The notes under the pieces were generated by a model, which was not told the DNA's origin, searched no databases, and saw nothing but the letters and a program-made list of their open reading frames with translations. A stretch of DNA of 64,000 nt from sequence record MK327934.1; one strand, 5' to 3'. This document shows positions 35,210-40,184 of the stretch, one piece after another; position 1 is the first letter of the stretch; each line of letters starts with the position of its first letter. Source of the stretch: Escherichia phage vB_EcoM_G2469. The position numbers were made by a program, and so were the translations under genes.

Positions 35210-35951
35210 TTAGAAGTCGTGAGTAGAATCGGCTTCCATCGCAATAACATAACTTACTTGAGAGCTTTCAAACTTGGCTGCAACTTTATCACCAGCTCCC
35301 CACAACATTACTTTATAGTTACCTGGCTGGATTTTCATATTAGCCATATTGATTACGAAGTTAAAGTTGTTAGAACCATCATAATCGGTAAGAGTCAAAG
35401 AATACTTAGGACGAGTTAGTCCAGAATCTTCAACTTTATTATAGCCATTGATAACAATTTTACCATCTTTATTTGTAATAGCAATTGTATCAATCTGAAG
35501 ACCACGTGAAACTCGAAGTAATTGTTGAAGGTCTTCGGCTTTAATTTCAGTAATCACAGAAGCCACCGGGAATTGAATTGGCTTATTAGGAAAAACAATG
35601 GTGCTCTTGTCAGCGGCAGGCCAATAAACTGTGGAACGTGTATCTGCAATTTTAATATTGCCATCAGTGTGCATTGAAATTTCAGCATCATCAGACACTA
35701 GACTCAAAATGCTTAAGAAGCTATTCAAATCATAAAGTGCTATCATCAGACACTAGACTCAAAATGCTTAAGAAGCTATTCAAATCATAAAGTGCTACGT
35801 CAAAATCAATTTCATCAGAGATATTTGCTTCCGCATAAGTGGTGCCATTAACTGCACGAGTCATAATAAATTTACCTTGACTCAGCAGAATGCCGGAGTT
35901 AATAGAGGCGAAGTTTTTCAGAATAGCGATAGTATCTTTAGACAGTTTCAT
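35210..35951 (-). pseudogene. 45: sliding clamp gene 45, frameshifted by a 55-bp tandem duplication
   Basis: fragments 35951-35730 (MKLSKDTIAILK...) and 35746-35210 together match T4 gp45; both repeat ALYDLNSFLSILSLVSDD. Confidence 0.8.
35688..35797. repeat. perfect 55-bp direct tandem duplication (2 copies)
   Basis: 35688-35742 is identical to 35743-35797. Confidence 0.9.
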
Positions 35952-36422: not shown

Positions 36423-36614
36423 TTATTCGTAGAAGTCGGTAACTGTCCATGCGGAATTGCGATTAGACATTATTTTATTATACTCATCTTTAAAAGCAGA
36501 TTTGAGCATTTGTTCAGTAACAATATGTTCTTCACCTGAAAACGTATTGGTCAAAACATATTTTTTAATTTCAGGGACAACGAGAAGATGTTGTCCGGTT
36601 GAATACTCCGCCAT
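36423..36614 (-). CDS. small hypothetical protein
   Basis: 63-aa ORF, ATG start. Confidence 0.4.
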   Translation of the reverse strand: MAEYSTGQHLLVVPEIKKYVLTNTFSGEEHIVTEQMLKSAFKDEYNKIMSNRNSAWTVTDFYE

Positions 36615-36638
36615 TATAAATCTCCGAGATTAAAGCAA

Positions 36639-36646
36639 TATAAATA
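36639..36646 (+). promoter_or_regulatory. late promoter TATAAATA on plus strand
   Basis: exact TATAAATA 45 nt upstream of the HNH ORF ATG; SD aagga. Confidence 0.5.
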
Positions 36647-36691
36647 GGTTTATCAATTTATCTGTTGCTGTATCAAATAAGGATTTAGTAA

Positions 36692-37408
36692 ATGAATTAT
36701 AACTCAATATACGAAAAGCTTATCACCAATGCTAAATCAAGAAGTTTAGATGGTTATACAGAACGTCATCACATTATACCACAATGTTTAGGTGGAAGTG
36801 ATGATGCTTTAAACTTAGTAGACTTAACACCGGAAGAACATTATTTGGCACATCAACTGTTGGTAAAAATCCATCCAGATAATGCCTCTTTAATATATGC
36901 CGCTCGTATGATGACCATATCATCTCCTAAAGCAGATAGAAGCAAAAACAAATTATTTGGATGGCTTCGACGTAAGAATCAAGAAGTTCAAAAGAACAAA
37001 GAATTCACTGCTGAAACCCGTAAGAAAATGTCTGAGTCTGCAAAAAATAAACCAAAGATTACATGTCCACACTGCGGTTTAACCGGCACTGAAGGAAACA
37101 TGAGACGTTGGCATTTTGATAACTGTAAACAAGGCCCTACGCCTAAAATAGTAAAACTTGATCAAGAAACAAAAGATAAAATAATTAAAACCATGGCCAC
37201 GAAAATTTGGAAAGAAGATTCTTGCCCGTTTTGTGGCTTAACTACTAAGTTATCGGCGTTAAAGCCACATATAAAATTCTGTAAATCAAATCCTAACAGA
37301 AAGAAAAAAGAGGACAAGAAAATTAAATGTCCTCATTGCGATAAAATAGGGATCCCTGCTAATATGCATCGTTGGCATTTTGATAACTGTAAACATAAGC
37401 CTCATTAA
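36692..37408 (+). CDS. HNH homing endonuclease with three C-terminal zinc-finger repeats
   Basis: 238 aa; HNH core ERHHIIPQCLGG...NLVDLTPEEHYLAH; CPHCG...RWHFDNCK repeated; opposite strand to neighbours. Confidence 0.75.
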   Translation: MNYNSIYEKLITNAKSRSLDGYTERHHIIPQCLGGSDDALNLVDLTPEEHYLAHQLLVKIHPDNASLIYAARMMTISSPKADRSKNKLFGWLRRKNQEVQKNKEFTAETRKKMSESAKNKPKITCPHCGLTGTEGNMRRWHFDNCKQGPTPKIVKLDQETKDKIIKTMATKIWKEDSCPFCGLTTKLSALKPHIKFCKSNPNRKKKEDKKIKCPHCDKIGIPANMHRWHFDNCKHKPH

Positions 37409-39093
37409 GAGGCTTTCATTACAGTAAATCGTCCAACTTTGCTCATTTGCAAATGTTGTCCATAAGCTTGTGGGTCATGGTCTCTGTGACTAATTATAAA
37501 CACGTTTGCATCGGTTAGAGAGTTAAGAATTGTTGAAATAGCTTTAATACCTTCAGAATCAGTCGCGGAATCCATGACTTCGTCCATAATTAATGTATTG
37601 ATTCTAACACCAGAGACCTTTTCAGCGATATCTCGCCATGTAAACAACAATGCGATATCGATACGTGCCTTTTCACCTTGACTAAATGAAGCATAACTGA
37701 ATTCTTCACGTCCACGTGATTTTATAGATTCATTGAATTCTTCGTCAATAGAAAACACGTAATCAGCTTCCATGATTTTAAGATAATGGTTAATCTGCTT
37801 GTTGAACAGAGGCACATATTTTTTAATGATAGCACCTTTAATACCAGAATCTTTTAACATATCTGTGATAATACCACGATGGTATTTTTCAAGAACGATA
37901 TCCGATTTTGTTTTAATGATTTTATCAAGTTCTTTTTGAAGCAAAGCTATCTCATCGGCATGGTCGATAAATTCCGCCGAGGCTTGTTCTATTGCAGCTT
38001 TAACTTTCTTAGCTTTATCAATAGTGGCAATCATTGCTTGTTTCTTGGTACGAATATCAGATGCAATGTCCTGTTTAGTCTTAACATTAGCTCTATATTC
38101 GTCCACTAGGACACTCAGATTATCTCTGTGACAGGTAAGTTGCTCGAATGAGTGATTACATTCATGAAGCTTATCGGTAATCTTAGAGACAATAGGATCA
38201 CCCTGGTGCAACTGTGATGCACAAGTAGGACATGTGCCGCCATCATGATACATCTTAATAACTTTGTTATATGAGTCAATTTTAGATTTAATCAAGAATG
38301 CTTCTTGTCCTATCTTGTTGAATGCCTCAGTAGGGTCTTCATCAAGAACGATATTAAGTAGTCGCTCATTAGCTTCTTCTATTTCTGCTTTTAATGAACG
38401 AGCTTCTTTGGCTAGGTCGTCATACATATTCTGTAGACGCGCTACATTATCACCAGATAATTTCTTTTGACGTTCGATATTCTCGTTATAAATCTTAATT
38501 TGTTGGATAACACCATCTTTCTTGGCATCGAGAACTTGTCCCTGGGAATTAAGTTCTCGAACTTGAGACTTATTGATTTTATCCATTTCAGCGAGTGTGC
38601 CGACTTCTAAAAGGTCTTCGACAAGTTTTCTACGAGCAGGGGTGCTAAGAGCCATGAAAGGGGTATACCCTGCCGTCCCAAGCACAACTATTTGTTTAAA
38701 AGACGCGTATGACATTCCGATGCTACGTTCAAATTCTTCTTGGAAGTCACGACTGCTGGCAGATTCATCGAGACGAACACCATCAACGGAGATTTCGAAA
38801 ATATTGGGCTTTTGGCCACGTCTAATGAAGTATTTTTTATCATCGAATTCCATCCAAAGCTCAACTAAGAGCTCTTTCTTGTTCGTGCTATTAATGATTT
38901 GTCCTTTCTTAACATCACGAAATGGTTTACCGAAAAGTCCGAAAGTAATGGCTTCTAACATCGTAGATTTACCACCGCCGTTTTTACCTGTGATTAAGGT
39001 CTTTTGGACTTTATCTAATTGGATATCGATAAAATTTTGCCCAACAGACATTATATTTTTATAACGAACACGATTTAATTTAAATGTTTTCAC
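37405..39093 (-). CDS. 46: recombination endonuclease subunit (Rad50/SbcC-like)
   Basis: 562 aa; GTG start; Walker A GKNGGGKST; T4 gp46-like. Confidence 0.9.
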   Translation of the reverse strand: MKTFKLNRVRYKNIMSVGQNFIDIQLDKVQKTLITGKNGGGKSTMLEAITFGLFGKPFRDVKKGQIINSTNKKELLVELWMEFDDKKYFIRRGQKPNIFEISVDGVRLDESASSRDFQEEFERSIGMSYASFKQIVVLGTAGYTPFMALSTPARRKLVEDLLEVGTLAEMDKINKSQVRELNSQGQVLDAKKDGVIQQIKIYNENIERQKKLSGDNVARLQNMYDDLAKEARSLKAEIEEANERLLNIVLDEDPTEAFNKIGQEAFLIKSKIDSYNKVIKMYHDGGTCPTCASQLHQGDPIVSKITDKLHECNHSFEQLTCHRDNLSVLVDEYRANVKTKQDIASDIRTKKQAMIATIDKAKKVKAAIEQASAEFIDHADEIALLQKELDKIIKTKSDIVLEKYHRGIITDMLKDSGIKGAIIKKYVPLFNKQINHYLKIMEADYVFSIDEEFNESIKSRGREEFSYASFSQGEKARIDIALLFTWRDIAEKVSGVRINTLIMDEVMDSATDSEGIKAISTILNSLTDANVFIISHRDHDPQAYGQHLQMSKVGRFTVMKAS

Positions 39094-39940
39094 TTAAATT
39101 TTTCCTCATGAATTCAGAAACTAAAGCCTGTAAAGAACTTTGTATAGGATATCCTAAATTGACTAAATTTTTAGAAAAAGTCACATATTTAGGTTTGTTC
39201 ATTTTAACCCATTCAACGTAAAGCATATCAAAATTTTCCCAATGATATCCTTTTCTTCTAGATTTCAAATGAGTGTCTCTAACTTTAGGATTTTTCCAAC
39301 TGCGTGAAACTCCAGCCGATAATGATTCTCTATATTCGGCTGTTTTAGATATTTTACGACAAGCATCCAAATGTTTTTGTTTATTAATAGGGTCACTAAA
39401 CCACTTTTGGGTCATAATAGAGACGGTTTCTTTAAATTCCTTTGAACTTGTCATAATTCTGTGTTTCTTTAAATTTTCCGGATTTTTAAACCATGCTTTT
39501 AAAGCTTGACTAATCTTAATTCTATTATCCTGATTGGAATAGTATAATGTCATTTTTATAGAATTAACTTTACAAACATTTTCGAATTCTAAAGAATACG
39601 CCTCGGCTATATTATTTAGTTCATGCGTTGTACAATTTAAATTAAATCGCCCGGTATACATTCTTTGAAGCGCGTTAATCATCTTATGGTTGCCAGTTTT
39701 TGCCAAAATGCTATGTGCAATAAAATGGTTATAATGACTTAAATGACACAAGTTCCATTTACATGTTTTAAAATCTGGAAAAATAGATTTTGGTAGTATA
39801 TGGTGAACCTGAGTCAGTCCTTTTACTTTATTAGTGGAATTAGTTTTTATAAAGTTTAAATACTCATCAAGTCCTTCCCACGAAGGGAAGGAGGTTTTAA
39901 GAATTTTATAAATTTGAGTTTCATAATCAGTCTTCGTCAT
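39080..39940 (-). CDS. HNH-like endonuclease
   Basis: HNH-like stretch QVHHILPKSIF...NLCHLSHYNHFIAH; start set to ATG 39938-39940 with gagga SD. Confidence 0.55.
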   Translation of the reverse strand: MTKTDYETQIYKILKTSFPSWEGLDEYLNFIKTNSTNKVKGLTQVHHILPKSIFPDFKTCKWNLCHLSHYNHFIAHSILAKTGNHKMINALQRMYTGRFNLNCTTHELNNIAEAYSLEFENVCKVNSIKMTLYYSNQDNRIKISQALKAWFKNPENLKKHRIMTSSKEFKETVSIMTQKWFSDPINKQKHLDACRKISKTAEYRESLSAGVSRSWKNPKVRDTHLKSRRKGYHWENFDMLYVEWVKMNKPKYVTFSKNLVNLGYPIQSSLQALVSEFMRKNLSENI

Positions 39941-40184
39941 TATACGCATCCTCAATACACGCTTCAGCCATTTTAAGAATAGAGCCGGGAGTATCGTTGT
40001 CCATTATATTAAAGCTAAATTCAATAGCCCAGTCGGTGCAGACATGAACTGCTTTAACTTCATTGCCTTCAACGCGTAATGGCTCAATCCAATACTTGAT
40101 AGTGTTCTCGAATCCATCATCATCTTTAACGTCCATTTCAACTTCAAGCCCAAGCCCAGCATTGTTAAATTCATCTAAAGTCAT
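39927..40184 (-). CDS. small acidic hypothetical protein
   Basis: 85-aa ORF, ATG start, 4-nt overlap with gene 47. Confidence 0.45.
   Translation of the reverse strand: MTLDEFNNAGLGLEVEMDVKDDDGFENTIKYWIEPLRVEGNEVKAVHVCTDWAIEFSFNIMDNDTPGSILKMAEACIEDAYNDED

Follow-up and report, generated by a model that had tools for sequence, protein, structure and literature searches.

A probable Mob-class HNH homing endonuclease cassette between genes 45.2 and 46 of Escherichia phage vB_EcoM_G2469

A 64,000-nucleotide stretch of Escherichia phage vB_EcoM_G2469 (MK327934.1), referred to below as the window, carries between genes 45.2 and 46 a plus-strand gene of 238 codons that is quite likely to encode a free-standing Mob-class HNH homing endonuclease, housed in a self-contained cassette of 806 nt. 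A mobile insertion of this type had been proposed in a preliminary description made from the sequence alone, and the proposal is now supported by the presence or absence of the cassette among related phages, by the homology of the protein to MobE of T4 and by its match to PHROG 655. The protein is an uncharacterised member of an already known kind and not a new kind; the GenBank protein of phage FL31, annotated as a homing endonuclease, is 100% identical to it.

Boundaries, distribution and movement of the cassette

In a region that is 98-99% identical to RB69-like Mosigvirus phages, the cassette stands in place of 67 nt of the 45.2/46 intergenic region of RB69 (L001 2211-2277), and 8 other Mosigvirus carriers show the same boundaries. 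The 67 replaced nucleotides extend from the start codon of 45.2 into gene 46, of which they cover 11 nt at the 3' end, and include an intergenic hairpin and a middle-promoter-like site. The two neighbouring proteins differ accordingly at their edges, gp45.2 of carriers beginning with Met-Ala-Glu versus Met-Glu in empty-site phages, and gp46 of carriers ending with KAS versus TVS. The Tequatrovirus phage FL08 has a cassette of 786 nt in place of 72 nt of T4, with equivalent boundaries. It is proposed that the cassette keeps its neighbours functional by bringing, on the left, a substitute middle promoter and a new 45.2 start and, on the right, the end codons of gene 46 with a hairpin.

A 2.1-kb query is matched over its whole length in 13 records (11 phages) of ~165 Mosigvirus-level records; in RB69 and most other Mosigvirus records, it is matched in two pieces and the open reading frame (ORF) is skipped. 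The comparison of related phages proposed in the preliminary description thus finds the empty 67-nt site in RB69 and most Mosigvirus phages, and the ORF is not conserved in all relatives. Among Tequatrovirus records, a cassette encoding a 58%-identical ortholog is found in 60 of 504, and the empty T4-type site in 444 of 505. In these two well-sampled genera, ~8-12% of the genomes are therefore carriers.

The same site is occupied in more distant phages. All of the eight other ortholog lineages examined (45-69% identity) lie at the 45.2/46 site and are convergent with gene 46. Orthologs from Dhakavirus IME281 (68% identity), Tequatrovirus FL08 (58%), Logan contigs (57%), an ENA contig (53%), Slopekvirus phiKp_10 (48%) and Pseudotevenvirus Cronuts (45%) are located between 45.2 and gene 46; the closest one (69%, on a Logan contig) is convergent with gene 46, and no 45.2 gene was called next to it. 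At 38% identity or less, the homologs sampled (those for which annotated neighbours were listed) lie beside head completion, neck, nrdA and topoisomerase genes, among others. A protein scan of IMG/VR retrieved no near-identical copies, only IME281 and distant paralogs; the carrier and non-carrier genomes compared were therefore taken individually from GenBank.

One carrier, ESCO47, is a mosaic. Its cassette is ~98% identical to that of the window and its gene 46 ~95-99% identical, and its genes 45, rpbA and 45.2 diverge from those of the window by 10-26%, the switch being located within ~5 nt of the left end of the cassette. This mosaic points to a recent horizontal movement of the cassette. 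Nuclease genes have been reported to sit preferentially at the boundaries of genetic exchanges (PMC10448857), a placement with which the switch point of ESCO47 would fit.

The window also harbours another Mob-like HNH ORF (~286 aa; PHROG 655, E 3e-31) without zinc fingers. It lies between genes 46 and 46.2, at the place occupied by gene 46.1 in RB69. Gene 46 is therefore bracketed by two endonuclease genes, which is how a homing endonuclease gene (HEG) island is arranged. The two HNH genes assort independently: both are present in F2 and in the window, the second alone in SQ17 and pEK20, and the first alone in a20, 348Ecol098PP and ESCO47.

Nuclease domain, zinc fingers and natural variants

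The HNH core recognised in the preliminary description is present. The full motif lies in ERHHIIPQCLGGSDDALNLVDLTPEEHYLAH (H26, H27, N41, H50 and H54) and reads E24-R-H26-H27-I-I-P...N41...H50...H54, with a spacing of 14/9/4 that matches the classical HH-N-H-H motif of colicin E9. In an alignment of 50 sequences, E24, H26, H27, P30, N41, H50 and H54 are invariant, as are the four ligands of the last finger. Residues 1-120 are 44% identical to T4 MobE (BLASTP, E 8e-29), and the protein matches PHROG 655 'homing endonuclease' with an E-value of 7e-67. A sequence search of the PDB with the protein gave no match below E 0.1. The AlphaFold model built on the 50-sequence alignment has a mean pLDDT of 91; in this model, the HNH core is a beta-beta-alpha unit (strands 24-27 and 42-45, then helix 47-60) with pLDDT >95. 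The nuclease domain is followed by a helix, FTAETRKKMSESAK, and, further downstream, by a weaker one, QETKDKIIKTMAT. The Pfam family NUMOD3 (PF07460) is found at the aligned position in many homologs; since the window protein itself has no Pfam NUMOD3 match at E <=0.1, these helices are only called NUMOD3-like.

The C-terminal half is basic (33 K+R versus 14 D+E in 138 residues) and holds three predicted zinc fingers. The preliminary description saw there three repeats of CPHCG...RWHFDNCK: the number of fingers stands, but only fingers 1 and 3 fit this formula, finger 2 being divergent. Fingers 1 (residues 125-145) and 3 (213-233) read CPHC-x12-H-FDN-C, with RWHFDNCK, and finger 2 (178-197) reads CPFCG-x10-H-IKF-C (CPFCG...KPHIKFC), its spacer being one residue shorter. 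Fingers 1 and 3 have the classical C2H2/C2HC ligand spacing, C-x2-4-C-x12-H-x3-5-H/C, and finger 2 has x11. No Pfam finger family significantly matches the fingers of the window protein. In the AlphaFold model, each finger is a beta hairpin followed by a helix (beta-beta-alpha). Foldseek searches against the PDB returned the finger arrays of CTCF, ZBTB24 and TFIIIA as top matches, with weak E-values (>=0.013), and a single finger superposes on the UBZ finger of Rad18 (TM 0.80, 1.2 A). A single-sequence model of the finger half (pLDDT 65) was too poor for fold searching. The models thus suggest that the fingers are likely to adopt the classical zinc-finger fold.

Related fingers are found on other nucleases. 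IMG/VR loci that match only the C-terminal part encode other nucleases with a C-terminal CPxC-x12-RWHFDNCK finger, usually placed after NUMOD3 repeats; these are GIY-YIG types and one HNH_3-type. Pfam GIY-YIG or LEM-3_GIY-YIG scored above threshold in three of the eight proteins scanned, and in none of these nucleases does a Pfam family cover the finger. A full-library search with finger 3 (39 residues) retrieved 1,871 clusters at E <=1e-3, including proteins with four to eight matched stretches. The four top matches inspected are metagenomic nucleases (P0031, P0121, P0122 and P0123), in each of which about six or more WHFDNCK-type fingers follow one another in tandem; at least some of these proteins have GIY-YIG-like N-termini. 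A literature search on the finger signature found no description of it. The C-x2-C-x12-H-x3-C finger with (R/K)WHFDNCK might tentatively be regarded as a DNA-recognition module that is widely shuffled among phage homing endonucleases and has so far escaped description, an idea that we consider possible but rather doubtful. If each finger reads a few base pairs, such proteins would amount to zinc-finger nucleases of a natural, polydactyl kind, with targets that could be decoded and might even be reprogrammed; were this true, the present cassette, whose empty site is known, would be well suited to testing how the fingers read DNA.

The gene is intact in all nine Mosigvirus copies. The eight that are collinear differ at 33 variable nucleotides, with only four amino-acid changes, and pairwise dN/dS among Mosigvirus copies ranges from 0.01 to 0.08; these copies are under strong purifying selection. 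Eight of the nine keep all catalytic and zinc-binding residues, and the copy of ESCO47 (L003 2301-3017) carries H27Y at the presumed general base. Another copy, that of mar005p1 (L093 2293-3009), is chimeric: its residues 1 to ~155 are near-identical to the window protein (three substitutions), and the segment with its fingers 2 and 3 derives, at the same locus, from another ortholog lineage.

Table 1. Features of the endonuclease cassette and of its neighbourhood in the window
Feature	Position	Strand	Basis or remark
Whole cassette, 806 nt	36610-37415	.	blastn and anchored alignments against RB69
Endonuclease ORF, 238 aa	36692-37408	+	ATG start, intact
N-terminal HNH nuclease domain, residues 1-101	36692-36994	+	homology to T4 MobE
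Catalytic core, E24-H54	36761-36853	+	residues invariant in 50 homologs
NUMOD3-like helix FTAETRKKMSESAK	37004-37045	+	aligns to MobE SEETRLKMSKS; also in T4 MobE
Zinc finger 1, C125-x2-C128-x12-H141-x3-C145	37064-37126	+	model: strands 122-124 and 131-133, helix 134-144
Second, weaker NUMOD3-like helix QETKDKIIKTMAT	37163-37201	+	
Zinc finger 2 (divergent), C178-x2-C181-x11-H193-x3-C197	37223-37282	+	model: strands 175-177 and 184-186, helix 187-199
Zinc finger 3, C213-x2-C216-x12-H229-x3-C233	37328-37390	+	four ligands invariant across the family
T4-type late promoter TATAAATA (candidate)	36639-36646	+	exact match, 46 nt 5' of ATG
Shine-Dalgarno AAGGA	36679-36683	+	8 nt 5' of ATG, direct sequence reading
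Middle-promoter-like site, MotA box TGCTTTA + 12-nt spacer + TATAAT	36613-36637	-	pattern match
Two-tier hairpin over both convergent stop codons	37386-37425	.	RNA fold
Gene 45.2 (left flank)	36423-36614	-	Pfam Gp45_2, E 2e-28
Gene 46 (right flank), Rad50/SbcC-like recombination nuclease subunit	37405-39093	-	annotation of RB69 and other relatives
Second Mob-like HNH ORF	39080-39955	-	PHROG 655

Expression signals, neighbouring genes and target site

The ORF limits and the flanking genes given in the preliminary description were recovered (Table 1): gp45.2 and RpbA (E 6e-48), both to the left of the endonuclease gene, are identified by Pfam, and gene 46, which is convergent with it, by the annotation of relatives. 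The description also called the endonuclease gene the only long plus-strand gene, which holds, as the five other plus-strand ORFs of at least 120 aa are all buried within minus-strand genes; it is the sole free-standing plus-strand gene of the window. The promoter motif is exactly where it had been placed, the Shine-Dalgarno sequence is present, and an AAGGA/AGGA block is kept in orthologs. Taken by itself, a single match to TATAAATA is not significant, the motif having 4 occurrences in the window versus 7.7 expected. This match appears to be more than a chance one, judging from its being the only plus-strand copy in 64 kb, from its location 46 nt before the sole plus-strand gene and from its conservation: it is invariant in all nine Mosigvirus cassettes, and among the seven other ortholog lineages in which upstream DNA was read, four have TATAAATA at -27 to -44 and three have variants with one or two mismatches at the same place.

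Back to back with this promoter lies a middle-promoter-like site directed into 45.2/rpbA/45. The pattern TGCTTYA-N11-13-TANNNT has 18 matches on both strands of the window versus 1.6 expected, the minus strand accounting for 13; its abundance and the scarcity of TATAAATA fit an early/middle gene region. In the nine Mosigvirus cassettes, both boxes of the site are invariant and the spacer is variable. Since the empty sites of RB69 and T4 each have a middle-promoter-like site in the DNA displaced by the cassette, the latter appears to supply a replacement middle promoter for the downstream genes. The -10 hexamer overlaps the start codon of 45.2, so that transcripts starting there would be of use to rpbA and gene 45, not to 45.2. 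Replacement promoters brought by endonuclease genes are a theme already described for the seg and mob genes of T4 (PMC2988022).

At the other end, the stop codons of the two convergent genes overlap (TAA of the endonuclease gene, 37406-37408; gene 46, 37405-37407) and share the palindrome TTAA. The hairpin that covers them has a folding energy of -17.8 kcal/mol for the plus strand (z -7.0) and of -17.9 kcal/mol for the minus strand (z -5.0), and is probably a 3' end structure shared by the two transcripts. It takes the place of a hairpin of the empty RB69 site (z -3.3). The hairpins of the empty 46/45.2 intergenic regions lie at L001 2231-2253 in RB69 and at L100 ~1355-1392 in T4; in RB69, the arms GATGTGGT and ACCACATC enclose a loop that contains the -10 TATAAT of the middle-promoter-like site. 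Consensus scans around the endonuclease gene found no canonical T-run terminator, and no sigma-70 promoter stood out. A 5' leader structure masking the ribosome-binding site was considered and rejected, as the leader folds no better than shuffled sequences (z -0.6, +0.2 and -0.9).

Two peculiarities were observed further to the left. Phage G2285 (L092 609-1498) has two extra hypothetical ORFs between gene 45 and rpbA that are absent from the window and from RB69, a further variable insertion within this gene cluster. In the window, gene 45 (minus strand), which is essential and encodes the sliding clamp, contains an exact tandem duplication of 55 nt (35687-35741 = 35742-35796). Owing to the frameshift that it causes, gp45 is broken into two ORFs (78 and 178 aa) with an overlap of 18 residues. 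Apparently no public record has the duplication: the best 15 of 197 matches all span 246 nt for the query of 301 nt. Either it arose as an artefact during assembly or editing, or it is a mutation expected to be lethal.

As regards the target of the endonuclease, a comparison of nine carriers with six non-carriers found no fixed difference outside 36610-37415. The simplest account of carrier immunity would thus be an overlap between the replaced 67 nt and the site of recognition or cleavage, and the target probably does overlap them. These 67 nt are identical in the four non-carriers aligned, and only the two ends of the replaced segment are conserved between RB69 and T4. The end on the side of 45.2, TTGAATAYTCCATGTTKTTCTCCAT, comprises the start and ribosome-binding region of this gene and differs from the carrier sequence in both genera. 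Mosigvirus carriers keep the end on the side of gene 46, CATTACAGTAAATCGWCCAAC, unchanged, and the Tequatrovirus carrier has an altered version of it. The 45.2 end would therefore rank slightly above gene 46 as a target; a target in or near gene 46, as put forward in the preliminary description, is plausible. A two-base change at 37450/37452 (the 'CA' allele), synonymous in a Leu codon of gp46, was rejected as a mark of the target: it is found in carriers only (6 of 9; one-sided p ~0.017, by hand), and this value fails correction for ~130 variable sites or for shared ancestry. This allele and the mosaic of ESCO47 would be no more than population-level hints of preferential inheritance in which flanks are co-converted.

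Proposed mechanism, alternatives and comparison with known systems

From homology and from the anatomy of the cassette, on which all its steps rest, a homing cycle can be proposed. Late in infection, the gene's own late promoter would drive its transcription, and its own ribosome-binding site would serve for translation. During co-infection with an empty-site relative, the C-terminal half, in which NUMOD3-like helices alternate with three C2HC fingers, would bind a long asymmetric site at the 45.2/46 junction. The N-terminal HNH domain would then nick or cut nearby, with H27 as the general base and H26, H50 and H54 at the metal site. Phage recombination would repair the break from the carrier template, so that the cassette and some of its flanks are copied in. 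Carriers would be immune because the cassette has replaced 67 nt holding at least part of the site.

Several points weigh against a homing endonuclease. A literature search retrieved no paper on the protein or its orthologs showing cleavage, nicking or preferential inheritance, and another, for an endonuclease at the 45.2/46 site, retrieved nothing relevant. No Pfam HNH family scores above threshold, the best one, HNH_5, reaching 13.5 bits versus a cut-off of 27.5 (E 0.069); the motif is complete, and this shortfall reflects the poor coverage of the Mob branch by the models. Computation does not pin down the target site, the replaced 67 nt alone consistently separating carriers from non-carriers, and local alignment detects no operator-like copy of the empty site near the promoter. 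H27Y in ESCO47 indicates that not every copy is active. Lastly, the very low dN/dS and the occupation of the same site in at least nine lineages exceed what would be expected for a purely selfish element cycling through decay.

This last point could be explained if the nuclease were domesticated, i.e. no longer homing but kept for the benefit of the phage, either in excluding competitors or in processing DNA with gp46/47. Besides the dN/dS values, the constancy of position and orientation in nine lineages from at least five genera and the proximity of the recombination nuclease genes 46/47 would agree with such a role. However, a gene carried by so small a fraction of genomes in two genera is dispensable, and the mosaic of ESCO47 indicates that the cassette moved horizontally in recent times. 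Furthermore, excluding competitors by cutting their DNA would be the same biochemical act as homing. Domestication thus seems unlikely. The ESCO47 substitution could instead mean that the endonuclease is defunct or hitch-hiking, and persists through ordinary recombination or through mobilization in trans by the second HNH gene, which lies only 1.7 kb away in the window; trans-homing is documented in T4, where I-TevIII is mobilized by MobE (PMC2790892). Against this stand the retention of every catalytic and zinc-binding residue by all but one of the Mosigvirus copies, the large excess of synonymous over replacement changes and the absence of the second HNH gene from most carriers, which together make this explanation quite improbable.

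The three fingers, the basic C-terminal half and the back-to-back arrangement of the endonuclease promoter and the middle-promoter-like site would also suit a protein acting mainly as a DNA-binding regulator that represses its own or the opposite promoter, its nuclease activity being secondary; I-TevI, which doubles as an autorepressor, provides a precedent (PMC2988022). An I-TevI-like operator was rejected, since local alignments in both Mosigvirus and Tequatrovirus show that the 5' region is no more similar to the empty site than shuffled controls. As the full HNH catalytic set is also conserved, such a primarily regulatory function is very improbable. A free-standing Mob-class homing endonuclease is therefore retained as the best explanation.

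The cassette adds one more case of selfish nuclease genes located between essential replication or recombination genes of T4-like phages. It would be a tractable example, as the limits of empty and occupied sites are known to the nucleotide in two well-sampled genera, the cassette has its own predicted promoters and 3' end structure, two HNH genes bracket the essential gene 46, and both a natural, presumably catalytic-dead variant (ESCO47, by H27Y) and a domain-swapped one (mar005p1) are available. Its wider value lies in the presumed DNA-binding half, with a repeated finger of classical spacing that is common to several nuclease classes and has no Pfam model.

The closest well-studied system is T4 MobE, a free-standing HNH homing endonuclease encoded between nrdA and nrdB, which drives its own inheritance by a strand-specific nick in nrdB of T2 (Wilson & Edgell 2009, PMC2790892). 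The N-terminal HNH domain is common to the Mob proteins, whose C-terminal parts differ (PMC2790892). MobE and the window protein have a homologous HNH domain and first NUMOD3-like helix (44% over 120 residues), and both genes are free-standing between conserved genes and present in some relatives only. However, MobE (141 aa) ends after this helix and lacks fingers, whereas the window protein has 238 aa and three fingers; the mobE gene has no promoter and is co-oriented with its neighbours, whereas the window gene is on the opposite strand with its own late promoter; and their sites differ (nrdA/nrdB versus 45.2/46), the nick site being mapped for MobE. The orthologs of F2, ST0, FL31, IME281, FL08, phiKp_10 and Cronuts are the same gene at the same site, with the same orientation and architecture (45-100% identity) and no substantive difference; they are annotated as 'homing endonuclease' or 'Mob-like HNH homing endonuclease', and a literature search found no experimental characterisation of these same-site orthologs.

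I-HmuI and I-TevI likewise tether a small nuclease domain to a string of small DNA-binding modules, but they are intron-encoded and belong to other subfamilies (HNH_3 for I-HmuI, GIY-YIG for I-TevI). The finger of I-TevI is of the four-cysteine type. I-TevI resembles the window system in having a zinc finger and a late promoter, and its finger acts as a distance ruler and not as a sequence reader (PMC2988022). Further parallels come from ICP1 and other phages, with their HEG islands and zinc-finger repeat HEGs (Barth et al. 2023, PMC10448857), namely an essential gene (here gene 46) between two HEGs, 'beads on a string' finger arrays with domains shuffled between nuclease classes, and an HEG at a genetic-exchange boundary (here in ESCO47). 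Their repeats are of the CapR/DUF723 type (CxxC...CxC) on T5orf172 nucleases, whereas those described here are C-x2-C-x12-H-x3-C. With eukaryotic C2H2 and UBZ-type C2HC fingers, the fingers of the window protein share an identical ligand spacing, and the model predicts a beta-beta-alpha fold for them; they differ in that the last ligand is Cys and that the linkers are long and helix-bearing, not of the TGEKP type.

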